Origin: Ruminococcus albus 7 = DSM 20455
GTDB lineage: Bacteria; Bacillota; Clostridia; Oscillospirales; Ruminococcaceae
NCBI RefSeq assembly: GCF_000179635.2
Contig: NC_014833.1
Location: forward strand, 570,001 to 602,000
Direction of reading: 5' to 3'
Length of the DNA: 32,000 bases
A program made the translations under genes and the position numbers. This document shows, piece after piece, positions 2,491-28,199 of the stretch (its first letter is position 1; every line of letters starts with the position of its first letter). The notes below the pieces were generated by a model. That model did not search any database, was not told the DNA's origin, and saw nothing but the letters and a program-made list of their open reading frames with translations.

Positions 2491-2874
2491 ATGCTGGTAC
2501 AGCTGTTGGAACTATTTGATATCATTACCCGGGGAGGGCTGTTTTTCGGTCTTCACCTTGACGGCAGGACAGTGTTTCCCCGTCCGCTCACAGCAGCCGA
2601 GGAAAGAGATTGCTTTGAGAAAATGTCCGAAGGCGATGCAGGGGCAAGGGACACTCTCATTCGTCACAATCTTCGCCTTGTGGCACATATAATAAAAAAG
2701 TACTACGCAAATTCTTCCGACCAGGACGATCTTATATCCATTGGTACTATAGGTCTTATCAAGGCGGTGCAGACCTTCGACTATACCAAAGGCACCCGTT
2801 TTGCCACCTACGGCAGCAGATGTGTTGAAAATGCTACACAATCACAACGGACATTTTCTTGTCAGATGATGTAA
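2491..2874 (+). pseudogene. sigK: 5' segment of pro-sigma-K (sporulation sigma factor). Homology ends after ...RCVEN at nt 2832/2833 and is followed by 14 unrelated codons and a stop.
   Basis: A GGAGG RBS lies 9 nt upstream of the ATG. A hydrophobic pro-peptide is followed by FPRPLTAAEE, GDAGARDTLIRHNLRLVAHIIKKY, DDLISIGTIGLIKAV and GTRFATYGSRCVEN. HNLRLVAHI.KK and FP.PL match SigK (B. subtilis EHNLRLVAHIVKKF, AFPQPLS) rather than SigE (ERNLRLVVYIARKF). The expected continuation EILMHLR and regions 3-4 are absent. Confidence 0.8.
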
Positions 2875-2930
2875 AAGATGTGCCCTTAATAGGCGAGTGG
2901 CGATTTTTACGCAGAGTAGAGAGCCGAATG

Positions 2931-3410
2931 TATACGCTGTACTCTACCCACACAAGCGGCAAAATAGTCACCCTTTATATTCACAGTTTTAAGCCGAAAA
3001 GAATACCCGATTTTGCGCTTAATGATAATTCCACAGTTTCAGACAGGTTGAAATTTTACAGGATAAGCTGTGGGCTCATGCAAAAAGAGATAGCCGCTCA
3101 AATTGGTGTAGACCGCACCACCTATGCCCGCTGGGAGAACAATGTGCTGTCGGCGTATCCGTTGGACAAGCTCACACTACTTGCAGAGATATTCGGGTGC
3201 AAAGTCACAGACTTGCTCGATGAGTACAATAAGTTCCTGATAAATGGGCAGGGAAGTTATATCAGAAACCTGCAAAAAAAGAAGTCTCTCACACGATGCA
3301 GGCTTGCAGAGCTGATGTCCGTTTCTGTCGGCCGTGTCAAGGATTGGGAGAGTGAGAGAAAGCGGGTCAGCATGAAGTGCTATGTGCGGTTGATGGAGAT
3401 AAACAAATAA
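2931..3410 (+). CDS. XRE-family transcriptional regulator with two helix-turn-helix modules (start uncertain: 2859 or 2931)
   Basis: The first HTH is LMQKEIAAQIGVDRTTYARWENN and the second is LTRCRLAELMSVSVGRVKDWESERKRVS. No convincing RBS precedes either candidate ATG. The longest ORF begins inside the sigK stub. Confidence 0.65.
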   Translation, partial: YTLYSTHTSGKIVTLYIHSFKPKRIPDFALNDNSTVSDRLKFYRISCGLMQKEIAAQIGVDRTTYARWENNVLSAYPLDKLTLLAEIFGCKVTDLLDEYNKFLINGQGSYIRNLQKKKSLTRCRLAELMSVSVGRVKDWESERKRVSMKCYVRLMEINK

Positions 3411-3544: not shown

Positions 3545-3943
3545 TTATAGACTTTTTAGCCCTTTTATAAATTTTGGAAAAACTGTCTGGTCAGTCATAA
3601 ATTCAAATTTAAGAATGTGGCTGCCTACATCACCCTGTATATCACCTGAAACCTTTATGTGTCCTGCCCGGTCGCAATTGAACACGATCTTATTACCATA
3701 ACCAATTTCAATAAATGTTACTTCTTTCCTCTTAAATGAAATCATTTCTTCAAGAGCTGTTATGAAATTCTGTAATTCCATATAATCATACTCACAGCCA
3801 TCTGCTATGCCAGAGAACACACCTGATCTCACTTTAATGTCAAATGCACAATTGTAAGGATTGCCATTTTTCTCCTCATCAACAGAATGGTGAAAATCTG
3901 CTATTTCAATATAATTTCCACAGTATTCAAGTCTGGCTTCCAT
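3545..3943 (-). CDS. Hypothetical cytoplasmic protein, 132 aa, no motif recognised
   Basis: This is an intact ORF with a GAGGT RBS ~10 nt upstream of the ATG. It is convergent with the XRE gene and has no signal peptide or TM segment. Confidence 0.55.
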   Translation of the reverse strand: MEARLEYCGNYIEIADFHHSVDEEKNGNPYNCAFDIKVRSGVFSGIADGCEYDYMELQNFITALEEMISFKRKEVTFIEIGYGNKIVFNCDRAGHIKVSGDIQGDVGSHILKFEFMTDQTVFPKFIKGLKSL

Positions 3944-4439: not shown

Positions 4440-4592
4440 ATCTATCGGACATAACAGCATAATGACGGTGAAATGTCCAACCTATTTATAATTTGTTATA
4501 ATTTGGCTATGGCTGTTTATGGTATATATGTCGTTTACTGTAACAGCCGCATCAGATTTACGTTCTTTTATTTTAAGGAGGTTCAAGAGATA

Positions 4593-7580
4593 ATGCAAAT
4601 GACAATGAAACGGATCGCCGCAGGGCTTGTGGCGATTACCGGCGCTTTATCGGCAACAGCCGCATCTGCACCTATGAGTGTGTTTGCAGAAGATGAACAG
4701 ATACTTATCCAGTCTGACTTCGATGAAGGCATAGGTCTTCCCTGGTACACCACCGAGAATGCCCCGGCACGGCAGGACTTCGATATTTCAGACGGCACTT
4801 ACACTGTAACGATACTGAACAACGATGGTCCCGAGTCAAGATGGGATCTTCAGTTAGGTTACAGAAATTTTGTGATAAAAAAGGGTCATACTTACAAGGT
4901 GCACTGGAAGGTCAATTCTTCCAATGAGGGTGAGATGTATACCCAGATCGGCAATTACAGCGGTACGGTCGAAGCATGGCACAACAACTGCGGCAATGAT
5001 GATTTCAATCAGACGTGGGACTGCGTACAGATCGCTAAAGGCGACAACGTCTTCGATGCTGAATTTACAGCTAAAGAAGATATTGGGCGTGCTGAATGGG
5101 TATTTCAATACGGCGGAAATGGTATGTTTCAGGATGTTGACTGCTTCCCAAACGGTACGGTCCTCAAATTCGATGATCTGTCTCTGATCGACACTACTCC
5201 CGGGGGCTGTATAACCGAAATCAAAAATAACGAGTGGGGCGTTGTAAGACCCGAAAGCAACGTTCGCCTGAATCAGATCGGTTACTATCCTCAGCTGGAA
5301 AAGAGGGCTTCTTACGTTACCGATGCTTCTTCACCTCTGCAGTTTGAGATCAGAGATAAGAACGGCAACGTTAAGTACACGGGCACAACAAAGGTATTCG
5401 GCAGCGATCCTGATTCAGGTACAGGTAAGACTACTACTGTTAAGATAGGTAGTCAGATCGTTACCAGACTCAAGGACAGCGGTTCTAATGTACATATCAT
5501 TGATTTCTCTGATTTCAGAACTGAGGGCGAGTACACGATATTCGTTAAGGATACAGTTGGCGTAAGCGGCACTCAGGTTCTGCTTAACAATGGTGCAAAC
5601 GATACAAGGCTCAGCGGTGATAAGCTTTTATGGACAAATCCCGTAACTATGAAAACTTATACGATGAACGAGAGCAGTACATTCAGGATAGACAGACAGA
5701 TCTATGATGATCAGCTGCTGAGGGATTCCATGAACTACTTCTATCAGAACCGTTCAGGTGTCCCGATAGAGTCTGAGTACATCACATCAGGTGATAAGTC
5801 TGCACTGGCACACAGCAGATATGGTCATAACCCCGATATGGCTTATGTACAAAGCAAATGGTTTAAATCTTATGACAGCGACTTCCGTGATGGCGAGAAG
5901 AATGAACAGATCGACGTTACAGGCGGATGGTACGCCGCAAACGACCACGGCAAGTACGTTGTCGAAGGCGGTTTCTCAGTATGGACACTTCAGAACGCTT
6001 ATGAGTTCTCCAAGAAGAGCGGCAATTCACACAAATGGACTAACGGCACGATAGCTGTGCCCGAAAATAAGGATAATGCTCCCGATATACTGGATGAAGC
6101 AAGGGTAGAGCTGGAGTGGATGTTCAAAATGATAAATGAGGACGGCTTCGTATATCATTCGGTGCAGGATCATAAATGGGCAGGTTTTCCGATCACACCC
6201 TGGATGGATGACACACAGCAGGGCTTTGAACCTGTCCGTATCGTCAGACCTCCTACGTATGCAGCCACATTTAACATGATCGCTTGTGCTGCACAGGCTT
6301 CACGTCTGTGGAAGGGCATAGATGACGACTTCTCAAAAGAGTGTCTGCAAAATGCACAGAACAGCTGGAAGGCTATCATGGCTAAGCAATCCAAATGGGA
6401 CGTTAAAAGGGGCTATCACTATTCTGATCCCTACTTTGCTCCTTCTGAATTCGGCGTAAACAACATTTTCGGTGACAACTATGTAGTTGACGATGCTTAC
6501 TGGGCAGCTTGTGAGCTTTATGCAACAACAGGTGACTCGGCTTACTATGATTTCTTAAAGGATAATGATCAGTCAGGTCAGGATAAGGCATTCAGCTTGA
6601 CTTCCTGCCTGAGCGGCGGCGAGAACGATCGATCGTTCGGTTCCTTCAATTGGGGCAATACTGCAGGTCTGGGCACCCTTTCACTCTACCTGAGCGACAA
6701 GACATCTTCTGCTGACAGGAAGACTATTGCCAATTCTATCCAAAATATTGCTGATCAATACCTTATTCAGATGAGTAATGAAGGCATGGGCATACCTTAC
6801 AAGAGTATGACTACCGAGGACTATATCGGTAGCGATAAACCAGCATTCACAGGTTATGAATACGGCTCCAACTCATTCGTTATCAACAATGCTATGGTCC
6901 TTGCCTATGCTTATGATACTGATAACAGCAAATATATTTATCGGAACGGTGCTGCTGAAGCACTTGATTACCTCTTCGGACGCAACGGTCTGGGCTTCTC
7001 TTATGTATCAGGCTACGGCGATAAGGCAATGAAATCGCCACACCACAGATACTGGGCAAACAGTATCGACCCGGACTTCCCGAAGGCACCCTCAGGTGTT
7101 CTTGCAGGCGGTCCCTGCTCAGATATGTATCATGATAATTACCTTCGTGGTCTCGGCTATAAAAGAGGCACTTTAGCTGATCAGAAGTACTATGTTGACA
7201 GTGCTGAGGCGTGGACTGTAAATGAGGTTTCCGTCAGCTTGAACGCTTCTCTGGTCTGGATGTCATCATTCATGAACGATCAGTTCGGCGGTCCGAAACC
7301 AGTCCCCTATCCTACCAACATTAAGGTCGATTACAGTGAGGAGTACCATCAGGTAAGATTTACCTGGGACAAGGTGGAAAACGCTGACAGATACGGCATA
7401 GCAGTTTATCTGGCAGGCAAGTGGAGAGTTCAGAAACAGGATATCACAGGCACTACCTACACTTCTCCCAAAAATCTGACTCCCGGCGTAACTTATAAGG
7501 TAGCGATTGCCGCAAGAGTGAACGGCAGATGGGATACTGAAAATGCTATCAAACGTGCTTGTACTGTTACTATAAAGTGA
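4593..7580 (+). CDS. Secreted family-9 glycoside hydrolase (endoglucanase/cellulase): signal peptide, CBM4_9-like module, Ig-like CelD_N module, GH9 catalytic domain, C-terminal Fn3-like module
   Basis: An AAGGAGG RBS lies ~10 nt upstream of ATG 4593. The signal peptide is MQMTMKRIAAGLVAITGALSATAASAPMSVFA. GH9 motifs are DVTGGWYAANDHGKYVVEGG, PHHRYWA and YYVDSAEAWTVNEVSVSLNASLVW. No dockerin is present. The upstream part of the 4473 ORF looks non-coding. Confidence 0.9.
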   Translation: MQMTMKRIAAGLVAITGALSATAASAPMSVFAEDEQILIQSDFDEGIGLPWYTTENAPARQDFDISDGTYTVTILNNDGPESRWDLQLGYRNFVIKKGHTYKVHWKVNSSNEGEMYTQIGNYSGTVEAWHNNCGNDDFNQTWDCVQIAKGDNVFDAEFTAKEDIGRAEWVFQYGGNGMFQDVDCFPNGTVLKFDDLSLIDTTPGGCITEIKNNEWGVVRPESNVRLNQIGYYPQLEKRASYVTDASSPLQFEIRDKNGNVKYTGTTKVFGSDPDSGTGKTTTVKIGSQIVTRLKDSGSNVHIIDFSDFRTEGEYTIFVKDTVGVSGTQVLLNNGANDTRLSGDKLLWTNPVTMKTYTMNESSTFRIDRQIYDDQLLRDSMNYFYQNRSGVPIESEYITSGDKSALAHSRYGHNPDMAYVQSKWFKSYDSDFRDGEKNEQIDVTGGWYAANDHGKYVVEGGFSVWTLQNAYEFSKKSGNSHKWTNGTIAVPENKDNAPDILDEARVELEWMFKMINEDGFVYHSVQDHKWAGFPITPWMDDTQQGFEPVRIVRPPTYAATFNMIACAAQASRLWKGIDDDFSKECLQNAQNSWKAIMAKQSKWDVKRGYHYSDPYFAPSEFGVNNIFGDNYVVDDAYWAACELYATTGDSAYYDFLKDNDQSGQDKAFSLTSCLSGGENDRSFGSFNWGNTAGLGTLSLYLSDKTSSADRKTIANSIQNIADQYLIQMSNEGMGIPYKSMTTEDYIGSDKPAFTGYEYGSNSFVINNAMVLAYAYDTDNSKYIYRNGAAEALDYLFGRNGLGFSYVSGYGDKAMKSPHHRYWANSIDPDFPKAPSGVLAGGPCSDMYHDNYLRGLGYKRGTLADQKYYVDSAEAWTVNEVSVSLNASLVWMSSFMNDQFGGPKPVPYPTNIKVDYSEEYHQVRFTWDKVENADRYGIAVYLAGKWRVQKQDITGTTYTSPKNLTPGVTYKVAIAARVNGRWDTENAIKRACTVTIK

Positions 7581-8005: not shown

Positions 8006-8666
8006 TTACCACCTATCTAGTATACTCCAATAAACTTCATAAATATATAATATATTTCGATTTGTTGAAGAATAGATAATATAAGCAACAGGCTATACCC
8101 GTGGTGAGTATATCACATGGAGTGTAGCCTGTTTTTTATGTCCGCGATTGCATTATACAAATTTTGCCACCTTTGGGCAGAGTAGTATCTTATGGCTTTA
8201 CAGAAAAACATACTGAGTTATCTGCACGTTGCTTACTATTTTAGAACTTTCAACAATCTTTCCACAAAGTATGAGTTTACCGCTTGACAGCGCCAAATTG
8301 TTTCTGTATAATAATCAGTGGCAGATATACCTTTATAATGTGTATATGTCAAATAACGAAATGGAGGTCATCTGGATTCGTATTATGACTATGTTAATAA
8401 CGAAATCAATGAAACAATAAGTGCTCTTAATCCTGACTGGGAGAAGGAAGTAGATAATATTAAAGAAATACTTAAAAGTCTCCCTGATGACAAGCGAGCA
8501 AAAGTGAAGACTGAAATATGTAACACTCTCACTAAAATTAAGGGAAAGTTATTAGATGGCGAGGTTATAATACATAACTGAGTGGAAGATTTGAATAGGA
8601 TTTCAAAGCCCAACATATTGTATTATTGTGCGATGAAAACGATTCTTGTTCATTATGAGGTACAAA

Positions 8667-9233
8667 ATGAATATTTGGAAAATAATAAAAAACGAAGGAT
8701 ACAATAATGCTTTTTTGATTGATTCAACCGGTAAACAGCATTTTGATTCGCCTTTAGATTTCAAAGAGATAAAAAATAACCCTCCAACACGCTTATTAAA
8801 AATCGAGGTAACCGATAAAGGATTTCCCGATATAATGAACTATTGGGGAATTAGCGGTACAGTAATCGTTAATTCCAAGGTGAAAGCACTGATAGAGCGT
8901 TACTACGGAACACTGCAAACACAGTTTTTGCCATGTATATGTTCAAACTGTCAAGATACGGAATTATGGATTTGGAACGTTTGTGAATATCATGATGTAT
9001 TGGATGTCCCAAAAAGCATTTGCGACAGAATTATTAATCTGCAAGGGAAAGAAGCAATAAAGTCGGTAGATAAATACGTATTCAAAAAAGAGGCTTTTGA
9101 TTTGGATTTCTTCAAAATCTATCTTGAAGAACGCAAATACAATACATATTTATTTGTATCAGACAGATTCAAGAAAATAATGGAAGAAAACAATGTAACC
9201 GGCTTGGCACTCGAAAAGGTTTATTCTATTTAA
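8667..9233 (+). CDS. Imm11/DUF1629-like protein (putative polymorphic-toxin immunity protein)
   Basis: The start is chosen at MNIWKII (GAGGT RBS 5 nt upstream). The pattern ...VNSKVKALIE....LQTQFLPC......ELWIWNV....DVLD..KS...........I......F....F....FK........YLFVSDRFKKIMEENNVTGLALEKV matches my recollection of the DUF1629 layout. This was not verified by search. Confidence 0.5.
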   Translation: MNIWKIIKNEGYNNAFLIDSTGKQHFDSPLDFKEIKNNPPTRLLKIEVTDKGFPDIMNYWGISGTVIVNSKVKALIERYYGTLQTQFLPCICSNCQDTELWIWNVCEYHDVLDVPKSICDRIINLQGKEAIKSVDKYVFKKEAFDLDFFKIYLEERKYNTYLFVSDRFKKIMEENNVTGLALEKVYSI

Positions 9234-9250
9234 TTAGGAGCAGACGAAAA

Positions 9251-9775
9251 ATGATAGATAATCAGGTTAATTTAAAGCAACAAAAACTTGCAATCGAAAA
9301 GAGTGCATTCTCCGATTCAAAAGCAGATATGTCTGATGTCAGCTTTGAAATAGGAAAAAGCAGTTATACTGCGAAGCTTTTCGGTTTTATCGTTTTATTT
9401 GCCATTTTCTTTGGAGTACGAACAATAGCAAGGCGTTATGTCGGAAATCCGAATATGACATTTTCAATTGGAGATATTATATTCTGGTGCTGTATAGGAA
9501 TGATCGCCATACTCGTTATTGTAACGTTCATCCGTGAGAAAAACAAGCCCACTATATCAGTTTTGGGTAAAAAACTATTTTATAACGGAAACTGTTGGAC
9601 AAGCGATGATATTTCATTTGTCAGGTGTACGAAGTGGTTTGAGCGGGTCGAGGTTTACTCAAATGGTAAGAAAGTATTGACTTTCCCATGGGAATTGGAT
9701 AATTCCGAGTTGTTTATTGCTTGGGTCAACAAATGCGGGATAACATTTGAAGATCATCGTATGAAGGCTTTTTAA
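9251..9775 (+). CDS. Hypothetical membrane protein (two TM helices plus a small C-terminal domain)
   Basis: An AGGAG RBS lies 9 nt upstream. TM segments are LFGFIVLFAIFFGV and IIFWCCIGMIAILVIVTFI. It starts 18 nt after the preceding gene. Confidence 0.6.
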   Translation: MIDNQVNLKQQKLAIEKSAFSDSKADMSDVSFEIGKSSYTAKLFGFIVLFAIFFGVRTIARRYVGNPNMTFSIGDIIFWCCIGMIAILVIVTFIREKNKPTISVLGKKLFYNGNCWTSDDISFVRCTKWFERVEVYSNGKKVLTFPWELDNSELFIAWVNKCGITFEDHRMKAF

Positions 9776-9776
9776 T

Positions 9777-9833
9777 ATCATAGGAGAAAACGGTGCCGGG
9801 AAAACAACTCTTATGTTTTATAATCGGCTATAA
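9777..9833 (+). pseudogene. ~18-codon relic of an ABC-transporter ATPase (Walker A only)
   Basis: Nt 9780-9830 translate to IGENGAGKTTLMFYNRL followed by a stop. GENGAGKTTL is a canonical P-loop. There is no start codon and no remainder of the gene. Confidence 0.4.
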
Positions 9834-9844
9834 TTTATCAAGAA

Positions 9845-10453
9845 ATGGGAGTGAGTATAGTGAGTGATTCAAATATAAAAGGGTTTCATAATATTACAAT
9901 GACTGGTAGACTATGTTATATTTTTATGTGCATAGAACGCTATTTGACTACTCTTTATCCCGAACGTGACTGGACACCTGTTTCAAAAAGAATGTGGCAA
10001 TGGACTACGCATTGGTGGAATGAATCGTGGGATATATACTCTCAAGCTGTTCCGGAATTTATACTTGAATTTGACACCTATGAAGAAACGAATGAGCGTT
10101 CATATGAAGGGAATTTAGATAAAGATGACTACGATGAAATTACTGCATTGTTCAGAGGAATTACAGACGGCAAGGGTACTGATGAATTATGTCAAGTTCT
10201 GATGATCCCCAGTGATTTTGGCAGTATATGTGAGGGCTCTTGTGTTGAGGGTGCTGAGCCTCTTGTAACTGAACTGATTGAGGACATAGAATCCATTCTA
10301 AAAAAACATAATATCCCATTCCCCGACAGAGCATCATTAAGTCATTTTGAATATGAAAGAGGCAAGCCCGTAGGACGTGAAGAAAAAGAACCGGGTTGGG
10401 GTGATTTTGAGAATACTGAATTCTTATCAATCATCTTGAATAAAACAACATGA
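9845..10453 (+). CDS. Hypothetical acidic cytoplasmic protein, 202 aa (start uncertain)
   Basis: This is an intact ORF on the same strand as the two preceding genes, followed by a strong terminator. No motif was recognised. Confidence 0.55.
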   Translation: MGVSIVSDSNIKGFHNITMTGRLCYIFMCIERYLTTLYPERDWTPVSKRMWQWTTHWWNESWDIYSQAVPEFILEFDTYEETNERSYEGNLDKDDYDEITALFRGITDGKGTDELCQVLMIPSDFGSICEGSCVEGAEPLVTELIEDIESILKKHNIPFPDRASLSHFEYERGKPVGREEKEPGWGDFENTEFLSIILNKTT

Positions 10454-10646: not shown

Positions 10647-10811
10647 TATGACTATCCCTTTAGCACACCACCCAAAAATATCTTTATAACAAGGAAATAC
10701 TGAGTTGATGTTATCTTTCCCCCCGCCGTAGGCGGGGGAAAGATAAACGCCAACTATATTCAGTTCCCAATATAACATCGTTTATTTTGGTGTGTCAGCG
10801 GGATAACCACA
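10647..10811. mobile_element. 165-bp MITE derived from the adjacent IS1595-family element, flanked by an 8-bp target-site duplication TTTCAGAA
   Basis: The left end tatgactatccctttagcacaccac and the reverse complement of the right end tgtggttatcccgctgacacaccaa match the IS terminal repeats (catggttatccctttaacacaccac). TTTCAGAA occurs at 10639-10646 and 10812-10819. The element has no ORF and contains an internal GC hairpin at 10712-10745. Confidence 0.75.
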
Positions 10812-10980
10812 TTTCAGAATGATGGTGATGATATGGCTACGACTTCTATCGCTGAAAGAAGCGATGACGAAGAGCAACAGCGGCAGCCTGTTCCGATATT
10901 CTGAGGTTTTCAAAGCTGACTTCCTACACCGAGGAACAGCTACGAAAGAGCTTTTTTCCTGCAATAGCCATAATAAAAAA

Positions 10981-12003
10981 CATGGTTATCCCTTTAACAC
11001 ACCACAGATAATTTACAATGCTGTCCAAATAAACAGACCTCAAAAACCGGAAAATATAGTATAATAGTGACAGGAAACGAAAGGAGCTGTCGCTATGTCA
11101 AAAAGATTTCCGAAACCTGAGATCACACTTGATGGGATATACTCAAAGTTCGCAGATGAAAGCTTTTGCAAGGATTTTCTGCTTGATATCCGCTTTGAAA
11201 AGGGTTTTGCCTGCCCGTTTTGCGGTGGCTCTGAGTACCGCAGGATAAGGTCACGCCATCTGCTGCGCTGCAAGTTCTGTAAAGCAGATATATCCGCCAC
11301 AAACGGAACTTTTATGCACAGAACACATATTCCGCTCAGACTGTGGATAGTCACCGCATTCCTCATTATGAGCAACAAATGCAGCGTTTCTGCTGTTACG
11401 CTGATGAGGTCTTTGGGGGTGACCTACAAGACTGCATGGTACATCCTTCACCGCATCAGAAAAGCTATGAAATGCCGTGAAGAACGTTATTTGCTGGACG
11501 GAATCGTTGAACTTGATGACACGTATCTCGGTGCTCCGACTCACGGTAAAAAGCGTGGCAGAGGAACTGAAAAAGTCAAGATGATAGTAGCTTTGTCAAA
11601 GAACGCAGCAGGAAATCCCGAGTACGTTAAAATGAGCGATGTGCCGAATTTAAAGGGCATAACTGTGGGTAGATTTGCCAGGGATAATATCCGCGCAGGC
11701 TCGAAGATCGAGAGTGATAATGCTCGAAGTTACAAGAAACCGCTGGCACAGAAATACTTCCATGTTTTTGAGACATATGATCCGACAAGCGGTCAGCTGA
11801 ATTGGATGCATAAAGTTATATCAAACTTCAAAGCAATGATCATGGGAACTTACCACGGAAACGAAAAGATCCACACAGCGTTATATGCTGCCGAATACTG
11901 TTACAAATTCAACCGCCGAAAGCTCGGGAATAGTGCTTATTTACGGCTTTTAGCTGCTTTGGTGCAGTGATCTTACTTGTGGTGTGTTAAGGGGATAACC
12001 ATT
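10981..12003 (+). mobile_element. Complete IS1595-family insertion sequence (1023 bp) with ~26-bp imperfect terminal inverted repeats and an 8-bp target-site duplication ATAAAAAA
   Basis: IRL is catggttatccctttaacacaccaca. The reverse complement of IRR is aatggttatccccttaacacaccaca (23-24 of 26 identical). ATAAAAAA occurs at 10973-10980 and 12004-12011. Confidence 0.85.
11095..11970 (+). CDS. IS1595-family (ISXO2-like) DDE transposase with an N-terminal zinc ribbon
   Basis: AAGGAG RBS upstream. Zinc ribbon: CPFCGGSEYRRIRSRHLLRCKFCKADIS. ISXO2-like core: IVELDDTYLG...IVALSKN...IESDNARSY. The 291-aa ORF is intact. Confidence 0.88.
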   Translation: MSKRFPKPEITLDGIYSKFADESFCKDFLLDIRFEKGFACPFCGGSEYRRIRSRHLLRCKFCKADISATNGTFMHRTHIPLRLWIVTAFLIMSNKCSVSAVTLMRSLGVTYKTAWYILHRIRKAMKCREERYLLDGIVELDDTYLGAPTHGKKRGRGTEKVKMIVALSKNAAGNPEYVKMSDVPNLKGITVGRFARDNIRAGSKIESDNARSYKKPLAQKYFHVFETYDPTSGQLNWMHKVISNFKAMIMGTYHGNEKIHTALYAAEYCYKFNRRKLGNSAYLRLLAALVQ

Positions 12004-12040: not shown

Positions 12041-12685
12041 TTATATGATCTCAAAATGGTTCTTCCTGCACCGTATTAATCTGTCACGCTGCATCTTGCT
12101 GAGTTCGTTGGAAAGCACCGAGCGTTCAACATTGAGGTAGTCCGCAAGCTGCTGACGGTCAAAGGGTATATCAAACTCACGGGAATGCTTCTGAACCGAT
12201 ACGGTATTAAGATACGCCATAATACGTCCACGCACCTGTCTCGGAGCAGTATGAAAGCTCCGGCTCGATAGGTGCAGATTTTTTCTTGTGGTGATAGTGA
12301 GAAGATTTGCAAGAAGTCTTGCCCTTATCGTATCGTTGAGGTCAGCGAGCGACTTCATGCTCAGAAAAACAACAGTGCAATCCTCAGCGGCGCAGACATC
12401 GACCAGCATAGGCACATCGGGCAGGAGTGCATAGCTTTCTGCAAAGAACTGTCCCTTACCTACAAGGTTGAGTATCGTGCGGTTTCCCCACATATCATTG
12501 CTTTCAATAGTAACGCTGCCTGCCGTGACAAAGCATAGTTTATCGGTGATCTCTCCCGAAGAAAAGATCATCGTACCTTTCTTATATTTCTTTTCGGCTG
12601 CATTAAGGGCTTTCATAAGCTCCGATATTTCGGTATCATCAAAGCCCTTGAACAGTATCGAATTATGCAAAACTGAAATATCCAT
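12041..12685 (-). CDS. Crp/Fnr-family transcriptional regulator (HcpR-like by context)
   Basis: It has an N-terminal cNMP-binding-type beta-barrel (FKGFDDTEISELM...GEITDKLCFVTAGSV) and a C-terminal HTH (RQQLADYLNVERSVLSNELSKMQRDRLI). It is divergent from the ferredoxin-hcp operon. Confidence 0.85.
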   Translation of the reverse strand: MDISVLHNSILFKGFDDTEISELMKALNAAEKKYKKGTMIFSSGEITDKLCFVTAGSVTIESNDMWGNRTILNLVGKGQFFAESYALLPDVPMLVDVCAAEDCTVVFLSMKSLADLNDTIRARLLANLLTITTRKNLHLSSRSFHTAPRQVRGRIMAYLNTVSVQKHSREFDIPFDRQQLADYLNVERSVLSNELSKMQRDRLIRCRKNHFEII

Positions 12686-12699
12686 ATTTCTCTCCCGAA

Positions 12700-12717
12700 A
12701 TGTTGTAATTACAACAT
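12700..12717. promoter_or_regulatory. Perfect 18-bp palindrome ATGTTGTAATTACAACAT, a Crp/Fnr-type operator (TGTTG-N6-CAACA geometry)
   Basis: Read directly in the 86-bp divergent intergenic region. A TATAAT at 12738-12743 would put the palindrome centre near -41.5 of the hcp-operon promoter, which is class II geometry. The TSS is assumed, not known. Confidence 0.6.
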
Positions 12718-12771
12718 ACTTTCTCCTTTGATTATACTATAATGGATACAGAAAGTCAAGGAGGTATGGCT

Positions 12772-13467
12772 ATGATACGAAAAATCATTGAGATAAACGA
12801 AGAAAAATGCAACGGCTGCGGTCTGTGTGCGAAGGCTTGCCATGAGGGTGCGATCGCTATTGTGAACGGCAAGGCTAAGCTCATGCGTGACGATTTCTGC
12901 GACGGCTTCGGTGAGTGTCTCCCTGCCTGTCCTATGGACGCTATCCACTTCACCGAGCGTGAAGCGGCGGCTTATGACGAAAAGGCTGTACAGGCAAGCA
13001 AGCAGAAGAAGTCCGCTTGCAGCGGTTTCACCTGTCCGGGTTCTGCATTGCAGAGCTTTACGCCAAAAGAAGATGACAGCGATGTTCGTGTTCCAAGCTG
13101 TCTGAGACAATTCCCGATACAGATAAAGCTCCTGCCCACAAATGCACCTTATTTCAACGGTGCTGATCTGCTGATTGCTGCCGATTGTACAGCTTACGCT
13201 TACGGAAACTTCCACCATGATTTTATCAAAGGCAGGATAACGCTCATCGGCTGTCCGAAGCTCGATGCCGTTGATTACGCTGAAAAGCTGACGGAGATAT
13301 TCCGTAATAACGATATAAAGAGTATTACTCTCACAAGAATGACAGTGCCGTGCTGCGGCGGTATGGAGTATGCGATAAAAAAAGCAATCGAAGCAAGCGG
13401 TAAGGATATTCCGCTTAAAATTGCAGTCATCTCGCCGGACGGCAGTATCGTTGAGATAAGAAAATAA
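12772..13467 (+). CDS. 4Fe-4S dicluster (ferredoxin-type) domain protein, co-transcribed with hcp
   Basis: [16 protein letters not shown] and [16 protein letters not shown] are two CxxCxxCxxxCP motifs. An AAGGAGG RBS lies 7 nt upstream of ATG 12772; in-frame ATGs at 12742 and 12766 are less well placed. Confidence 0.8.
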
Positions 13468-13481
13468 TGGAGGAATATATC

Positions 13482-15110
13482 ATGGAACAGAAAATGTTTT
13501 GCTATCAGTGTCAGGAAACAGCGGGCTGTAAAGGTTGTACCGCTTGCGGTGTCTGCGGTAAACAACCCGAAGTCGCAGTAATGCAGGACTTGCTTGTGTA
13601 CGTTACAAAGGGATTGTCTGCGGTGACAACTCAGCTCCGTGCAGAGGGAAAGACTGTCGATAAGACTGTTAATCATCTTATCAGCGTGAACCTGTTTATC
13701 ACGATCACCAATGCCAATTTCGATCTTGACAGTATTACCACTAAGGTTACTGAAACACTTGCAGTCAAAGAAGAATTGCTCGGACAGGTGCAGAATAAAG
13801 AATCACTCCCCGAAGCAGCTTTTTGGAACGGTTCGGACTATACCGAGAAAGCAAAGACTGTCGGCGTACTTGCAACAGAGAATGAGGATATACGCTCTCT
13901 GCGTGAGCTGATAACCTACGGTCTGAAAGGACTTGCGGCATATACAAAACACGCAAACGCTCTGCTGAATGATGATGAGAAGCTTGATGCTTTCTTACAG
14001 TCGGCTCTTGCTAAAACACTTGATGACAGTCTGTCGGTCGATGACCTTGTGGCTCTCACGCTGGAAGTCGGCAAGTACGGCGTTCAGGGTATGGCTGACC
14101 TTGATGCTGCAAATACTACAGCATACGGCAATCCTGAGATCACGACAGTTGATATCGGTGTCCGCAAAAATCCTGCAATACTGATCTCAGGTCACGATCT
14201 GAAAGACCTTGAAATGCTCCTTGAACAGACAAAGGACACGGGAGTTGATGTTTATACGCACTCGGAAATGCTGCCTGCGCATTATTATCCGTTCTTCAAA
14301 AAGTATCCGCATTTCGCAGGAAACTACGGCAATGCGTGGTGGAAGCAGAAAGAGGAATTTGAGAGCTTTAACGGTCCGGTGCTGATGACCACAAACTGCA
14401 TCGTTCCGCCGAAGGACAGCTACAAGGACAGGCTTTGGACAACAGGTGCCGCAGGCTATCCGGGCTGTAAGCATATTGACGCACCCTACGGCGAAGTAAA
14501 GGATTTCTCGCCGATCATCGAACAGGCTAAGAAATGTCCTCCGCCTACCGAGATCGAAACAGGCTCCATAATCGGCGGGTTTGCCCATGAACAGGTATTT
14601 GCACTTGCCGATACAGTTGTAGAAGCTGTAAAATCAGGGGCTATCCGCAAATTCGTAGTCATGGCAGGCTGTGACGGCAGAGCGAAGTCCAGAAGCTACT
14701 ATCAGGAATTCGTAGAGAAACTGCCGAAGGATACGGTCATTCTCACCGCAGGCTGTGCGAAGTACAAGTATAACAAGCTGGATCTTGGTGACATCGGCGG
14801 TATTCCGAGAGTTCTCGATGCAGGACAGTGCAATGATTCTTATTCTCTGGCGCTTATCGCTCTGAAGCTGAAAGAGGTATTCGGGCTTGATGATGTAAAT
14901 GATCTGCCTATTGTTTATAATATCTCTTGGTATGAGCAGAAAGCAGTCATCGTTCTCCTTGCTCTGCTGTATCTCGGAGTGAAGAATATTCACCTCGGAC
15001 CGACACTGCCTGCGTTCCTGTCTCCGAATGTGGCAAAGGTTCTTGTAGACAGCTTCGGCATTGCAGAAATTACAAACGTTGACGAGGATATGAGGATTTT
15101 CGGCTTATGA
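13482..15110 (+). CDS. hcp: Hybrid-cluster protein (hydroxylamine reductase / NO-detoxifying Hcp)
   Basis: The N-terminal cubane motif is [23 protein letters not shown]. The length is about 540 aa with conserved blocks ([21 protein letters not shown]). A GGAGG RBS lies 8 nt upstream of ATG 13482. Confidence 0.93.
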
Positions 15111-16155: not shown

Positions 16156-18873
16156 CTATTCTCTGTTTTTAAGCACCTCGGCGGGGGTTATCCGCTTCAG
16201 CTTTCCTGTCAGCAAAGCAGTGCTGAAAAAGTATACCGCAAGCACTGCGACGTACAGTATCAGGTAAAGATATAGCGGAAAATCCAGCGCCATTGAGCAG
16301 GCAACATTCGGTATAAAACTCGGATAGATGCAGTCCATCAGGAATTTCGCCAGCGGTATGCATATCAGCCCGCCGACGGATACGATGAAAAGATTGCCGT
16401 TTAAGTACAGTCTGCGCACCTCTTTCGGGCAGTAGCCGAATATCTTCATAAGGGAGATACCAAAGGAACTGCGGTCTATCATCACGCCCATCATAAGGTA
16501 CATCACTACGACAAATATCACCGTTCCCGCGATCAGCAGAGTGTATACCAGCGGCTTCATCTGCTCTGTGAAAACGCCCGAACTCTTTTCGATATCAGCC
16601 GCGGTGGTGACGCTGTAAAGTCTGCCCGCATCGATATCAAGTTCATCTGCGGAATAGACAGCGTTGAAGTAGTCTTCGTCCTCGCCGAAAAGTTCACGCA
16701 TGGAGCCTATATCCATAAAGATCGTGAACCCCGGGGAATACTGCGCGATATCCGTCACGGTGAAAGTGTAGTCGCGGTCAGCCGCAGCATCGGTGAAAGT
16801 CACCCTGTCGCCGATATCATAGCCGAAACGCTGAACTAGGGAGTTGTTGATTACTGCCTTATTCACGCCCTTTTCAGGGTCAGCATCGAAGTACCTGCTG
16901 TTCTCGTTCAGACCGATCACCGTCACATCAAGGGTATGCCCCGTGGAGTCAGTGGAAAGTGTCTTGATGAAAGCGCTCTCTCCTCCTGTGGGGACTTCCT
17001 TTTCGGGATACTTATAGAGATACATATAGCCGTACTGTGTATCGGCTACGTTGTCATGCTTTACTGCCTGACACATCACCATACAGTCAAGACCCAGCAT
17101 CACCACCATCAGGGAGACCAGCATACCGAGGATAACCGTCACCGCCGAACGCAGTTCTCGCACCATCTGCCTTACACGGAACAGGGTCATAAAGTTTTTC
17201 GACCTGATATTGAATCTGCGGTAGTTTGAAGCGCTCTGTTCGTTTTTGATGAGGGAAAGTGCAGTCCTCGAAAGCTTGCTGTTTATCACAAGTGCATTAA
17301 CGATCGCCGAGATGATCGGTGGCAGTACAAGCCCGTACACAAGCAGATATGGCGCATAGCAGATATCGTACTGCGGCAGTGAGAAATAGCCATAGCTTGT
17401 CTGTAACCGCATACCGATGCCGACGGGTGAAAATCCAAGTGCTGTGCCGATTACTCCGCCGATGAATGCTATCAAAGTCGGAAGAGCTATGTAATGCCGC
17501 AGAAGGTCTTTTTTCTTAACACCCAGAGCGTACAGCGCACCGATGACAGGGGCTTCGCTCTCAACGCGGTGTACCACGAAAACAGATATCACGTAGCCGA
17601 AAAGGATAAGGACGATAACTCCCGCCGCAAGACCCGCGTTCTTGTCCATTATCACATCGTCTGCCGCGGCTTCTATGCGCTCGTTATCGCCGCGGGAAAC
17701 GAATGACACAAGGTTCCCGATGTCGATATCGAAAGCCGCATCAAGCAGTTCGTCAATTCCATCACGCAGTTCACGTGCGCCGCTGTTCAGTTCGGCTGAA
17801 CCCTCTTTTGCTTTGCCGACAGCGTCTGTGTACTCCGCAAGACCGTCACGGTAAGCGATTATACCCGAAATGCTGTCTTTCAGGTTTTTCAGTTCTTCTG
17901 ACTTTGATATCTTTATCAGCCTGTCAAGTTCTTCGGCGTAGTTTTCTTCCCTCAGTGTGACATTCATTCCTGCCGCTGACAGCTTTTCATTCGCCTGCGC
18001 AAAATAGGCATCAACAAGCTGCTGTGAAGCAGTTTTAAGTTCAGCACTGTGAGACTCCAGTTCGGTCATGCCGTCACTGAGTTCGGCAGTACCATCAGTC
18101 AGGGAGTTGACTCCGTCCTCTATCCTGCGTCTGTCGGAGAGGAGATCATCGATAGTTTCACGGAAATATTTATCCTCGACTTTCATATGATCAAGCTTGA
18201 CAGCGCGTATCTTCTCTTTCAGGTCATCATCGGTGACATCAGCCCCCAGCTTGTAGGCGTAGACATACTCCTCTGCGGTCAGACCGCCCTCGGCGCGGAT
18301 ATCCTCATAGCAATCATCCGTGACAAAAATAAGCCCGAAATACCGCGATTGCACAGCGGTATCGGAAAACTTTGCTTTCGGCTGATCGTAATCGGGCACA
18401 GTACCTATACCCGTGACCGTGAATCCATGTCCGCCCGCTGTTATGCTGTCCCCGATCTTCACGCCGTTTTCTGCGGCATAGCGCTTTTCGAGAATGCACT
18501 CCCCTGATTTTTCGGCAAGCCTGCCCTCATCGAGAATGATCTTATCGATATTTTCGCGGTTTTTGAACATTCTGAGCACGGTGTCCTCATCAACTGAAAG
18601 GTCGGTGTAGAACTCCGCCTGTATCTCGGTACCGCCCTCGGCAAGGGTATCGATCTCACTGTCGTTAAGGGGCAGAAACACTGTGAAGAAGCCGTCCTCG
18701 GTGTTGAATTCAGCCCGCTTTTCGACTGTGCCGTGCAGAACTGTTTCAGCAGAACCGACGATGCCCAGCACCAGAAAAATGCCCATGGCGATGACCAGTA
18801 TCAGGGCGGTATAACGCCCTATCCCTGCCCTGAGATCGCGGGGCAGACGCTTTTTAAGCACTCTGTTCATCAC
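16156..18873 (-). CDS. FtsX/MacB-type ABC transporter permease (905 aa, duplicated FtsX domains, large extracytoplasmic and coiled-coil region)
   Basis: It has an N-terminal TM segment (YTALILVIAMGIFLVLGIV), a long extracellular segment, two clusters of FtsX-type TM helices, and a 4-nt ATGA overlap with the upstream ATPase gene. Confidence 0.85.
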   Translation of the reverse strand: MMNRVLKKRLPRDLRAGIGRYTALILVIAMGIFLVLGIVGSAETVLHGTVEKRAEFNTEDGFFTVFLPLNDSEIDTLAEGGTEIQAEFYTDLSVDEDTVLRMFKNRENIDKIILDEGRLAEKSGECILEKRYAAENGVKIGDSITAGGHGFTVTGIGTVPDYDQPKAKFSDTAVQSRYFGLIFVTDDCYEDIRAEGGLTAEEYVYAYKLGADVTDDDLKEKIRAVKLDHMKVEDKYFRETIDDLLSDRRRIEDGVNSLTDGTAELSDGMTELESHSAELKTASQQLVDAYFAQANEKLSAAGMNVTLREENYAEELDRLIKISKSEELKNLKDSISGIIAYRDGLAEYTDAVGKAKEGSAELNSGARELRDGIDELLDAAFDIDIGNLVSFVSRGDNERIEAAADDVIMDKNAGLAAGVIVLILFGYVISVFVVHRVESEAPVIGALYALGVKKKDLLRHYIALPTLIAFIGGVIGTALGFSPVGIGMRLQTSYGYFSLPQYDICYAPYLLVYGLVLPPIISAIVNALVINSKLSRTALSLIKNEQSASNYRRFNIRSKNFMTLFRVRQMVRELRSAVTVILGMLVSLMVVMLGLDCMVMCQAVKHDNVADTQYGYMYLYKYPEKEVPTGGESAFIKTLSTDSTGHTLDVTVIGLNENSRYFDADPEKGVNKAVINNSLVQRFGYDIGDRVTFTDAAADRDYTFTVTDIAQYSPGFTIFMDIGSMRELFGEDEDYFNAVYSADELDIDAGRLYSVTTAADIEKSSGVFTEQMKPLVYTLLIAGTVIFVVVMYLMMGVMIDRSSFGISLMKIFGYCPKEVRRLYLNGNLFIVSVGGLICIPLAKFLMDCIYPSFIPNVACSMALDFPLYLYLILYVAVLAVYFFSTALLTGKLKRITPAEVLKNRE

Positions 18874-19571
18874 AAGTCCTCCAGTTCGGCGGCGGGAACT
18901 ATCTTTTCATTTTCGTAGTCCTTTATGATCTGACCGTCCTTGATAACGATGACCTTATGCACCATATTTTTTATGGAGTTATTGTGGGTGACTATCAGCA
19001 TTGTAGTGCCGTACTTTTTGTTTATCTTCTCAAGAAGTATCAGGATATCGCGGGAGGTCTTTGAATCAAGAGCGCCTGTAGGTTCGTCGCAAAGGAGAAG
19101 TTTCGGGTTTTTGATAAGGGCGCGGGCTATTGCACACCTCTGCTGCTGACCGCCCGAAAGCTGCGCGGGGAACTTGTTCTGATGTTCTGTCAGACCCAGA
19201 ACTTCCAGCAGTTCCTCCATATCAAGGGGAGAATCCGTCAGATATCCGCAGACCTGTATATTCTCTCTTACGGTGAGGTTAGGCACCAGATTATAGAACT
19301 GGAAAATAAATCCCAGATAGTCGCGGCGGTAGTCGGAAAGTTCAGCGGGGCGCAGACCGAATATCTCCTTGCCGTCTACCCTGACCGACCCCGAATCCAT
19401 AGTATCAAGTCCGCCGATGCAGTTGAGAAGCGTCGATTTTCCCGAACCGCTTGTACCCTGTATAACGCACATCTGCCCCTTTTCAACGGCGGTGCTGACA
19501 CCTTTCAGCACCTGAATATAGCTTGTGTCTTTGCCGTAGCTTTTCTTGACATCTTGTATCTCTAAAAACAT
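18870..19571 (-). CDS. ABC transporter ATP-binding protein (MacB/LolD-type)
   Basis: Walker A GTSGSGKST, signature LSGGQQQR, Walker B LLLCDEPTGALD, H-loop VTHN. Confidence 0.92.
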   Translation of the reverse strand: MFLEIQDVKKSYGKDTSYIQVLKGVSTAVEKGQMCVIQGTSGSGKSTLLNCIGGLDTMDSGSVRVDGKEIFGLRPAELSDYRRDYLGFIFQFYNLVPNLTVRENIQVCGYLTDSPLDMEELLEVLGLTEHQNKFPAQLSGGQQQRCAIARALIKNPKLLLCDEPTGALDSKTSRDILILLEKINKKYGTTMLIVTHNNSIKNMVHKVIVIKDGQIIKDYENEKIVPAAELEDL

Positions 19572-19649
19572 TTTTGTTTCCCCTTTCTAAGGTTAGAATA
19601 AGCTAACTAAAGTATATGATATAATGCGGGATAACCGCAGAATATCACG

Positions 19650-20279
19650 TCACACATCGTCTTCCAATGAATACTCCATCCACGCTTTTATCAGCAGATC
19701 CATAACGGGCTTTATGAAATGCAGAGCGCTGTCTCTGTTTTTTTCGTGCTGCATCATATGTATGAAAGCGTTTATCTGCACATGGGTCAGCCAGTGGAGC
19801 ATTTTTCTGTTGACCCGCTTGTTCGGCACGCAGGCGGCGTACTTTTCCGCAAGGGCGATATATGAGCTGTCCAGCTTATCGATAATGCCGTCAACGAATC
19901 TTTCGTACTTTGACCCTGCCGAACGGTCGAGGAGTATCGTCATCTCATCGTAGTGGTCATAGATGACATTTACGAGGGCTTCGCTGAAATCATCGTGGTC
20001 GCCGCTGTGATGCTCATATGTCAGCAGGTCGGCTTCTATATCGCGGGCGAAGTGGTTTTCAAGCACTGCATTCAGCCGAGCCAGTGCTTCACCCACCACG
20101 CCCTCAAACAATCCGTTTTTGTCTCCAAAAAAGAAGTATACAGCACCCGTAGTCAGCCCCGCCTCCGAGGATATTTTTCTGAGAGAAGCCTTCGTAAAGC
20201 CCTTTTCAAGGAACTCTCTTTTTGCGCACTCTACAAGCTTTTCGCGGCTCTCTTTATTATCTGTGATCTTTTCCGACAT
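19650..20279 (-). CDS. TetR/AcrR-family transcriptional repressor
   Basis: The N-terminal TetR HTH is KLVECAKREFLEKGFTKASLRKISSEAGLTTGAVYFFFGDKNGLF. It is the first gene of the tetR-ABC operon, and a GGAGG RBS is present. Confidence 0.88.
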   Translation of the reverse strand: MSEKITDNKESREKLVECAKREFLEKGFTKASLRKISSEAGLTTGAVYFFFGDKNGLFEGVVGEALARLNAVLENHFARDIEADLLTYEHHSGDHDDFSEALVNVIYDHYDEMTILLDRSAGSKYERFVDGIIDKLDSSYIALAEKYAACVPNKRVNRKMLHWLTHVQINAFIHMMQHEKNRDSALHFIKPVMDLLIKAWMEYSLEDDV

Positions 20280-21116: not shown

Positions 21117-21978
21117 TTTACGGATAGTTTATCGTTGCCGTAGTATGACATCACCAAATCGATTGTTTATGGACATAAAAACAAGACCATGTATGAAAAA
21201 AATTTCTACATGGTCTTGCTTTTTGGTAAGGAAAGTCTTTCCGAGTGTGGATTTTTTATCGAATACTAAAATACAATATGTTATTTATTAACTTTGATAT
21301 TTAGATATAAAATATTATATATTGTATTTTATAAATATGCTGTGTATTGCTTTTTATATGTATTATATCTCATGCTTATTATCATGCAGATCGTTTGGTG
21401 CATGAAAGAATATTAAAACGAAAATACAGCCGCCGGGCAAAGAAAATATAAAACATAGATGCAGCTCTGCTCTCTTGTAAGGTGTCTAAAAATTAGACAG
21501 TAAAAAATCCTATCGTTTCATCCTACCTTCATTACATTTTTCCGTCATACTTCAAAATCAACCACCCACGAATACATTTCTCTAATACTCCGTTATTTTT
21601 CTGTATAAAAGAAAAGACCCCGCATAACGCTGAACCATAGGAGGCTCTTTTGTCATTGTAAGTTTTTACTGGCACGGTTCAAAAGATTGGTCGCTTTTGT
21701 TATGAAGCATTGAATCTATATTCATAAGGAGATAAATCATCAAGGAAAAGTTCCGCTCCGCAAATCGGCAAACTTGCATTTTTTAGTCATTTTACAGGTC
21801 TGATTAAGATCAACAATATCATATTTTTTTCAGTTCTTTATACGAGCAAAACTATTCGGATATCGGATTTTCCTAGAATCAATACTCAAAAAGAACAATT
21901 GGACAGATAAAGATTTATATGATAAAATAAAAAACATGGTAAATTGATCTGAAAACAAGGAAAGGGCTGAATTGAAAA

Positions 21979-23960: not shown

Positions 23961-23984
23961 TGATATTCAAAGGGAGAAAAAACT

Positions 23985-26890: not shown

Positions 26891-26905
26891 AATGTAGATA
26901 ACAAT

Positions 26906-26941
26906 AAAGCCTGAAAGCAGATAAAAACGCTTTCAGGCTTT
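26906..26941. terminator. Bidirectional terminator shared by the nif-like operon and the convergent lysR gene
   Basis: A 13-bp perfect stem (aaagcctgaaagc / gctttcaggcttt) with a 10-nt loop, flanked by A and T runs. Confidence 0.75.
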
Positions 26942-26945
26942 ACTA

Positions 26946-27866: not shown

Positions 27867-27945
27867 AAAATAAAGCACCTCGCAAAACAATCATAAGAAT
27901 AAATTTAAATTGCATTTTCATGAGTATATTATAACGTAAAAAATC

Positions 27946-27967
27946 TACTAATACAATATGATTAGTA
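27946..27967. promoter_or_regulatory. Inverted repeat TACTAAT-N8-ATTAGTA upstream of lysR (candidate autoregulatory box)
   Basis: Read directly. It lies 80-100 bp upstream of the lysR start. T-N11-A-type dyads are typical LysR sites. Confidence 0.35.
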
Positions 27968-28199
27968 TGAATATATATTAAATTATATCACAATTAACCT
28001 TATGAAGTTCATAGAAATCAATATGGCACATCAGCAACAGCTTGACAGCATCAAAAATTACATAAGTGATGTCAAGAAAACCGCTTCATTGGATAGTGAC
28101 AGCACCGAAATCTATGGTGAGCTTTTGAAGAAGGTAATAGCTCATGAAAATAAAACTGCTGCCTTTTATTTGAACTATGTATCGTTCGGATTCAGGATA

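Follow-up and report, generated by a model that had tools for sequence, protein, structure and literature searches.

A sigK gene divided by a putative skin-type intervening element in Ruminococcus albus 7

We analysed a 32 kb stretch of the Ruminococcus albus 7 chromosome (hereafter the window), in which a gene for the sporulation sigma factor sigma-K (sigK) breaks off after its 5′ half. R. albus 7 is the same strain as ATCC 27210 and DSM 20455, and its chromosome has 3,685,408 bp. Our analysis indicates that the sigK 5′ segment at nt 2491–2832 very probably lies at the left end of a sigK-intervening element of the "skin" type, that the far end of this element carries a recombinase gene and the sigK 3′ segment, and that the element would be excised during development. 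The features at the left junction are as follows.

2491..2832, + strand: sigK 5′ segment (spoIVCB equivalent), codons 1–114, encoding the pro-peptide and sigma regions 1.2–2.4 (TIGR02846, tblastn).
2806..2856, + strand: attL, with the host half-site ...TGTGTTGAA, the crossover dinucleotide AA at 2830–2831 and the element half-site TGCTACACAATCACAACGG... (alignment of attL, attR and attB).
2833..2874, + strand: read-through tail ATQSQRTFSCQMM followed by a stop, encoded by the left arm of the element and outside SigK (same tail in proteins P0001–P0008).
2928..3410 (possible start 2859), + strand: XRE-family regulator with two helix-turn-helix (HTH) domains, the conserved left-end module (Pfam HTH_3, E = 7e-13).

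The open reading frame (ORF) at 2491..2874 (+), preceded by GGAGG 8 nt 5′ of its ATG, encodes 127 aa: SigK residues 1–114, then 13 unrelated residues and a stop. This protein is exactly ADU21055.1 / WP_013497247.1 of R. albus 7. It matched the NCBIfam SigK profile TIGR02846 at positions 2–112 of 227 (E = 1.1e-39). The score of 136.4 bits is below the curated cut-off of 298.65 for a full-length match, as expected of half a gene, and Pfam returned Sigma70_r2 only. We then searched the window by tblastn (E <= 10) with three full-length SigK queries, two from relatives and a B. subtilis SigK sequence. The SigK alignment stopped at nt 2832 (...RCVEN), and no match to sigma regions 3–4 was found on either strand of the 32 kb. 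A preliminary description, made from the DNA letters alone, had proposed that sigK is split here with only its 5′ half present, that the half-gene has a GGAGG ribosome-binding site, that homology is lost at about nt 2833 and that no frame for regions 3–4 exists in the rest of the window; all of this is borne out. It had also stated that the left junction has no recombinase gene and that the first gene inside is an XRE regulator, and Pfam and NCBIfam indeed place an XRE-type double-HTH regulator there. No sigma-70-type promoter was found 5′ of the sigK 5′ half (sigK-N), a result that would agree with an alternative sigma factor controlling the gene. Inspection by eye of the regions upstream of sigK-N and of a 60-aa ORF near the recombinase gene gave no convincing match to sigma-E or sigma-K promoters.

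Many ORFs holding the 3′ half only came up when the C-terminal half of a full-length relative was used as the query. The sigK 3′ half (sigK-C) of R. albus 7 is P0130 (ADU21089.1 / WP_013497280.1). A draft genome of the same strain, GCA_000621285.1, which matches the window at 15553–29161 (JHYT01000069.1, 13608 of 13609 nt), also holds the junction between the recombinase gene and sigK-C on JHYT01000010.1 (L011). In contig L013, whose 3′-half protein is identical to the R. albus 7 counterpart, the gene for a large serine recombinase extends as far as its junction with the 3′ half, where its stop codon overlaps attR. The recombinase contains the Pfam domains Resolvase, Recombinase and Zn_ribbon_recom. 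It lies outside the window, has about 564–607 aa and ends at attR in L013, L024, L026 and L048; it abuts sigK-C in these four contigs and in L025. The same layout was found in R. albus AR67, R. albus KH2T6 and the metagenome-assembled genomes (MAGs) RUI259 and GCA_017619875.1, each of which has one N-half with the same tail as the window. Separate 5′ and 3′ sigK segments within one genome were found in R. albus 7, AR67, KH2T6 and RUI259. The nearest phage relatives of the recombinase are clostridial phage integrases (36–42% identity), its top NCBIfam matches are CcrB and XisF, both far below cut-off, and its pN of 0.003–0.011 indicates purifying selection. Of the two alternatives in the preliminary description, the one supported is thus that the window holds one junction of a sigK-intervening element with atypical cargo and a length above 29 kb, as the 3′ half, the recombinase and the attachment sites have been located. 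The proposed checks for a 3′ half in the same genome and for a large serine recombinase beside it both gave positive answers.

A second sigK fragment that seemed to overlap the first ("residues 58–230") was discarded, since, on translation of the loci, the overlap proved to be a spurious gapped extension of the tblastn alignment into the C-terminus of the recombinase.

ADU21055.1 and ADU21089.1 are 34 protein accessions apart, so about 33 protein genes should lie between the sigK halves; by a rough count, about 25 of them fall in the window. We estimate that the element of R. albus 7 is about 35–40 kb long and that its right end lies a few kb past the window, beyond whose end the element runs on. 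No overlap bridging the window end and the recombinase end (L013/L050) was found by look-ups of a 792-aa protein encoded at the window end and one metagenome scan. The complete element in GCA_017619875.1 is 16,878 bp, with both sigK halves in direct orientation. Its genes encode an XRE protein, short-chain dehydrogenases, nitroreductases, an oxidoreductase, a glycoside hydrolase family 9 (GH9) enzyme, an acetyltransferase, two small ORFs and the recombinase. The sigK halves of R. albus SY3 are 75 accessions apart. The metagenome and draft contigs with the 3′ half (L011, L012, L014) often start 50–600 nt from attR, and those with the N-half end a few kb from attL. These contig ends fit assembly-graph branching at a polymorphic or repeated element.

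The attachment sites could be read from occupied and empty alleles. In short form, attL is GTTGAA-AA-TGCTACAC; the span of about 25 nt per side listed above is an assumption from serine-integrase sites in general. The other two sites are as follows.

attR (L011, L013 and others): ...GCGAGTGTAGCA-AA-YGAGATACTYATGCAT..., in short form GTGTAGCA-AA-YGAGATAC.
attB, the empty site (L015–L019): ...TGTGTTGAA-AA-YGAGATACTYATGCAT..., in short form in relatives GTTGAA-AA-YGAGATAC.

From these junctions, attP would be GTGTAGCA-AA-TGCTACAC, and the predicted junction stretches are ...GTTGAAAATGAGATACTT... for attB and ...GAGTGTAGCAAATGCTACACAAT... for attP. In the deduced attP, a non-palindromic AA is flanked by 8-bp arms that are perfect inverted repeats, and symmetry continues in part beyond them. 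Inverted arms and a non-palindromic central dinucleotide are the form expected of a serine integrase site. The common core of attL and attR is AAAYG, flanked by the inverted arms GCTACAC/GTGTAGC, close to nt 2824–2837, where a shared repeat had been anticipated.

The split contig L049 and the intact contig L045 have 99.49% identity over 10,341 gap-free nt. Their similarity ends exactly after GTCGAAAA, where the next base is T in the occupied allele and C in the empty one. Because the two alleles diverge exactly there, the crossover is fixed at AA, which is sigK nt 340–341, at codon 114/115. T2832 is a base of the element, yet the Asn codon is preserved. The intact proteins P0260 and P0262 do not differ from the split allele P0002 in the N-half and continue ...RCVEN/EILMHFRS.... 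The predicted attB is the sequence of intact alleles, and the joined halves give an uninterrupted conserved sigK frame. This match with the intact alleles indicates that excision would be precise and in frame. Occupied and empty sigK alleles coexist within one species, and sister strains with an uninterrupted gene, for which the preliminary description had suggested looking, do exist (e.g. L045, P0260/P0262).

The two ends of the element differ greatly from the flanks in their divergence. Nucleotide identity between the window and AR67 is 63–85% across sigK-N and changes to 95–100% from about nt 2834. The proportion of synonymous differences (pS) between split genomes is given below.

XRE, left end of the element: pS 0.04–0.07.
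Recombinase, right end of the element: pS 0.03–0.07.
sigK-N, flank: pS 0.40–0.79.
sigK-C, flank: pS 0.41–0.55.
MatE, flank: pS 0.25–0.54.

Between species, the pS of 0.04–0.07 for XRE stands against 0.75–0.79 for the adjacent sigK-N. Judged by these values, the two end modules are roughly ten times younger than the host genomes around them. Their much lower divergence implies recent spread or exchange between species. In the excised circle, the XRE and recombinase modules would be neighbours around attP. The GH9 cargo has 87–92% nucleotide identity, and gene content varies between genomes.

The dN/dS of the N-half is 0.03–0.08 in split and intact genomes alike, and no stop or frameshift was found in either half of at least 8 diverged split alleles. 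Between KH2T6 and GCA_017619875.1, sigK-C has a pN of 0.000 and a pS of 0.051, which correspond to 0 non-synonymous and about 4 synonymous changes. This comparison is the only one likely to test constraint after insertion, and it is suggestive. Among the best 120 N-half homologues, 83 break right after RCxEN, 17 are intact and 20 end earlier. The tails of the 83 read A[IT][LIV][ST]Q[RW]..., the translated right arm of related attP sites. Similarly, about 100 of the best 120 C-half homologues have the 3′ half only, mostly preceded by [RS]IAN, the translated left arm.

A mechanism can be proposed by analogy with C. difficile (PMC5025042) and B. subtilis (PMC6957869). In L013, a TTGACA-17-TATAAT promoter with an extended −10 (TG) is located at 1810–1838, about 50 nt before the recombinase start codon. 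A 60-aa ORF lies directly upstream of the recombinase gene, at L013 1580–1762, and is followed on its 3′ side by a hairpin and then by this promoter. The ORF is kept in three of the four genomes examined and has no family match in Pfam, PHROGs or NCBIfam. The recombinase is probably made constitutively from its consensus sigma-A-type promoter. Excision of the element as a circle (attL × attR) would require a directionality factor whose production is confined to the differentiating cell, and the candidates for it are the 60-aa ORF and the conserved XRE protein next to attL. Excision would join the sigK halves in the terminally differentiating (mother) cell, where pro-sigma-K would then be made and processed. 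The germ-line copy of sigK would remain interrupted, as in B. subtilis and C. difficile.

Inside the window, the cargo of the element after the XRE gene is as follows.

3545..3943, − strand: WapI-like immunity protein gene, variable cargo (Pfam PF24716, E = 9e-8).
4473..7580, + strand: GH9 cellulase with CelD_N and Glyco_hydro_9 domains (Pfam; NCBIfam CelK-like, E = 6e-139, below cut-off).
8646..10453, + strand: Imm11 immunity gene and two genes of unknown function (Pfam Imm11, E = 1.8e-9).
10650..12000, + strand: miniature inverted-repeat transposable element (MITE) of the IS1595 family at 10650–10808, and a full IS1595-family insertion sequence (IS) at 10984–12000 with its transposase at 11095–11970 (Pfam DDE_Tnp_IS1595, E = 1e-21).
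12041..15110, mixed strands: Crp/Fnr regulator (−), ferredoxin-domain protein (+) and hydroxylamine reductase/hybrid-cluster protein (+) (Pfam).
16156..20279, − strand: FtsX/MacB-type ABC permease, ABC ATPase and TetR regulator (Pfam).
21471..27986, mixed strands: cassette of an NMT1-type binding protein, a permease, two nitrogenase-like proteins (Oxidored_nitro) and a LysR regulator (−) (Pfam).
28388..32000, − strand: 792-aa protein with weak adhesin-like matches, a small ORF and a transposase remnant at 31210–31398 (Pfam).

The scans with Pfam and PHROGs found no phage structural, packaging or lysis genes in the window cargo or the 16.9-kb element. The phage-like matches were restricted to the repressor-like XRE protein, which falls in PHROGs repressor/CII-like families, and one weak fn3-type match. 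The cargo would be an accreted, IS-ridden island rather than a prophage. The GH9 gene is common to all split genomes examined; AR67 and RUI259 have it within their elements, and it is also part of the 16.9-kb element of GCA_017619875.1. The segment 3452–4084 with the WapI-like gene is missing in AR67, KH2T6 and RUI259. The hydroxylamine reductase scored 853 bits against NCBIfam PRK05290, above cut-off, and the NCBIfam matches of the 21471..27986 cassette were all below cut-off. The full IS1595 copy has located terminal inverted repeats and an 8-bp duplication, ATAAAAAA; the metagenome relative L001 lacks it, and the same-strain draft has a contig break at its position. The MITE, about 160 nt long and about 175 nt upstream of the full copy, has the same terminal repeats.

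Several side observations were made on the cargo. The WapI-like gene (3545–3943, −) and the Imm11 gene (8646–9233, +) are orphan polymorphic-toxin immunity genes, with no toxin gene nearby. The 174-aa ORF at 9251–9775 (+) gave faint, sub-threshold matches to Spore_YabQ (E = 0.0047) and DUF6560. The gene yabQ is among those reported missing from R. albus 7, and the match is probably due to chance. The 6.5-kb cassette at 21471–27986 has 97.9% nucleotide identity between R. albus 7 and R. albus 8 (blastn, L019), whereas sigK and MatE of the two are about 71–74% identical. This difference, with the sharp ends of the cassette, implies a recent exchange between species. At the left edge of the cassette is a non-coding stretch of about 160 nt (21402–21564), containing the palindrome TGTCTAAAAATTAGACA and having a 95.7% identical copy at the unrelated position 169–330 of L017; it may act as an operator or belong to a small mobile repeat. 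There are two candidate transposase remnants: an 84-aa ORF at 28002–28256 (−) that ends ...LIDDYIYFYNH and has no family match, and a 62-aa ORF at 31210–31398 (−) with a weak C-terminal match to DDE_Tnp_1_6 (E = 8.6e-4).

R. albus 8 presents a puzzle. Its sigK is intact (L019 1–10700), and the 10 kb upstream hold a GH9 gene and the nitrogenase-like/LysR cassette, both of which are inside the element in R. albus 7. An IS1595-family MITE lies exactly between the cassette and the sigK promoter, with IRL at 9773 and IRR at 9872–9893. At the same position, the close relative L017 (3300–3700) has a 113-nt recombinase remnant (about 89% nucleotide identity) and a partial IS end, and the remnant adjoins a CRISPR array and cas2. 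As a hypothesis, an excised circle may have been recaptured beside the healed sigK through IS-mediated recombination that disrupted the recombinase gene. We also considered that the cargo might be ordinary chromosome trapped by a rearrangement; this is less likely given the MITE at the junction, the recombinase remnant in L017 and the GH9 gene inside the complete 16.9-kb element. The 10-mer TGAAAATGCT upstream of the R. albus 8 sigK was tried as an attachment site and taken as a chance occurrence, as it lies inside the MITE.

Other explanations of the split were also weighed. Drafts of this region often break at IS1595, in the gene of the 792-aa protein and near attR, which would suit an assembly breakpoint or chimera at nt 2833, an outcome that the preliminary description had named. 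But the junction is present on more than 15 independently assembled contigs, and is identical in the isolates R. albus 7, AR67, KH2T6 and SY3, and in MAGs and many metagenome contigs of different projects. It is therefore not an assembly artefact, and a chimera is scarcely credible. The second alternative in the preliminary description was a decayed or rearranged sigK, in which the 5′ half would be a pseudogene fragment without a functional partner. The absence of a 3′ half from the window, the IS elements and remnants nearby and the reported asporogenous nature of the host all agree with such a relic. However, the same genome holds an intact recombinase and an intact 3′ half whose attachment site matches, the halves join precisely and in frame, and sigK is under strong purifying selection. 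In all split genomes examined the two halves are intact, the dN/dS of the N-half is low (0.05–0.08) and sigK-C of two close split genomes differs by synonymous changes only, so decay is contradicted and a relic seems very improbable.

More serious is the explanation that the element is a plain integrative island for which sigK is a neutral landing site, with no timed excision and with sigK inactivated in its carriers. It agrees with the classification of R. albus 7 as non-sporogenous and the lack of several core sporulation genes, with the constitutive look of the recombinase promoter, and with the recent date of the end modules (pS about 0.05), so that intact halves need not reflect selection after insertion. 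Nevertheless, the two close split genomes compared above differ in sigK-C at about 4 synonymous and no non-synonymous sites, and neither half has a stop or frameshift in the diverged split alleles. Moreover, split homologues make up 83 of the best 120 for the N-half and about 100 of the best 120 for the C-half, which is hard to square with repeated inactivation in lineages whose sigK otherwise stays at a dN/dS of 0.03–0.08. The constitutive recombinase of C. difficile also coexists with developmental control through a directionality factor (PMC5025042). We consider a neutral island unlikely.

Several points weigh against a developmentally excised skin-type element, or limit what can be said of it. 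R. albus 7 has been listed as non-sporogenous and without spmA/B, spoIIM, spoIIR, spoIIIAB/AF, spoIIIE, spoVE, yabQ and yqfC (PMC3533761), so the developmental setting is uncertain, and excision within a developmental programme of R. albus is a proposal by analogy. As the end modules are young, most of the dN/dS signal in sigK may predate insertion, and the sole test after insertion rests on about 4 synonymous changes. The right end is outside the window, so accession order and the 16.9-kb homologue are the basis for the size and orientation predicted for the R. albus 7 element; direct orientation of the halves was seen in this homologue, and in R. albus 7 it is a prediction based on accession order. 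The candidate 60-aa ORF is absent in AR67. Finally, the host-like divergence of the cargo and its location upstream of the intact R. albus 8 sigK imply a cargo history beyond a single insertion.

A broader proposal can be made only tentatively, and we hold it to be possible rather than likely. R. albus and a large share of rumen and gut Oscillospiraceae, which are textbook non-spore-formers or uncultured, may routinely carry a sigK that a single family of serine-recombinase elements splits at codon 114/115. They may so depend on programmed excision for terminal differentiation under sigma-K (cryptic sporulation or a similar process). In this proposal, the recombination module would sweep between species, and the cargo, including the GH9 cellulase, would be discarded from the differentiating cell.

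The skin-type element itself, as described for R. albus 7, has several implications. For annotation, the "sigma-70 family" ORFs ADU21055.1 and ADU21089.1, like many half-genes in rumen and gut metagenomes, are halves of one sigK and should be annotated accordingly. A sigK switch that is intact and has been spreading recently, in a species on record as non-sporogenous, is an argument that sigma-K retains a function in it, and PCR across the attB and attP junctions would be a simple assay for whether and when R. albus differentiates. The element is also a clear case, found in nature, of a recombination module (regulator, attachment site and recombinase) moving between species independently of its cargo, an idea proposed from experiments in B. 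subtilis (PMC6957869). The recombinase, with its short and well-defined sites, is an additional candidate serine integrase for genome engineering.

In comparison with known systems, the R. albus element is similar to the skin element of B. subtilis 168 (spoIVCB / spoIIIC, recombinase SpoIVCA, directionality factor Skr) in that sigK is split by an element tens of kb long, the attachment sites are inverted arms around a short shared core, and pro-sigma-K has an N-terminal pro-peptide. Where skr lies in B. subtilis, just upstream of the recombinase gene, the R. albus element has a small ORF (PMC6957869). However, the R. albus site is at sigK nt 340–341, while that of B. subtilis is an AATGA core further downstream, which B. 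cereus AH820 also has (nt 423) and to which the phiS63 core at nt 427 corresponds (PMC10745906, PMC3442830). A shared site, with B. subtilis sigK split at ...CIEN/EILM..., was considered and rejected, since the literature puts the AATGA core elsewhere. Thus the analogy that the preliminary description drew with the B. subtilis and C. difficile skin elements stands for the kind of element, but the B. subtilis skin occupies a different site in sigK. Also unlike B. subtilis, where the recombinase gene is next to the 5′ half in the opposite orientation, that of R. albus abuts the 3′ half in the same orientation; its promoter looks sigma-A-type rather than sigma-E-type, and the cargo is not prophage-like.

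The skin(Cd) element of C. difficile (recombinase CD1231, directionality factor CD1234) has a sigma-A-type recombinase promoter, and its excision is controlled through the directionality factor, a small protein, as is proposed here for R. albus (PMC5025042). No CD1234 homologue was identified in this analysis. Unlike the R. albus element, skin(Cd) is 14.6 kb and prophage-like, and the sigma-K of C. difficile is without a pro-peptide, whereas that of R. albus has one. Other sigK-intervening elements are known from C. tetani, C. perfringens (phiS63) and the B. cereus group. Among these, island IV of B. cereus biovar anthracis (in sigK, 22 kb) resembles the R. albus element in its lack of phage structural genes, its serine recombinase and its assorted cargo (PMC10745906). 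In B. cereus ATCC 10987, the gin element, which interrupts gerE, likewise has a serine recombinase and assorted cargo but no phage structural genes (PMC5595907). Island IV and gin differ in their Bacilli hosts, their sites and their restriction-modification cargo, in place of the cellulase and redox genes of R. albus. The fdxN element of Anabaena (XisF) is also similar, as a large serine recombinase excises it during development and rebuilds a gene in a terminally differentiated cell, but this occurs in cyanobacterial heterocysts and at another target gene, and the XisF score of the R. albus recombinase is far below the family cut-off.

Galperin and co-workers described skin elements from 15 species, of 2.6–48 kb with 2–67 genes; all 15 have spoIVCA at their edge, usually directly upstream of spoIIIC, and they have no further gene in common (bioRxiv 10.1101/2022.02.25.481979). 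The R. albus recombinase gene is likewise at the edge and immediately 5′ of the 3′ fragment. Ruminococcus has no mention in the main text of that survey, and our full-text literature search, whose scope is outside supplementary tables, returned no paper linking Ruminococcus with a split sigK. In every structural respect that could be checked, the R. albus element agrees with the known ones. It is a further example of the already known skin arrangement and leaves the principle unchanged; what is notable in it is that the host is listed as a non-spore-former and that the cargo consists of metabolic genes, not phage genes.

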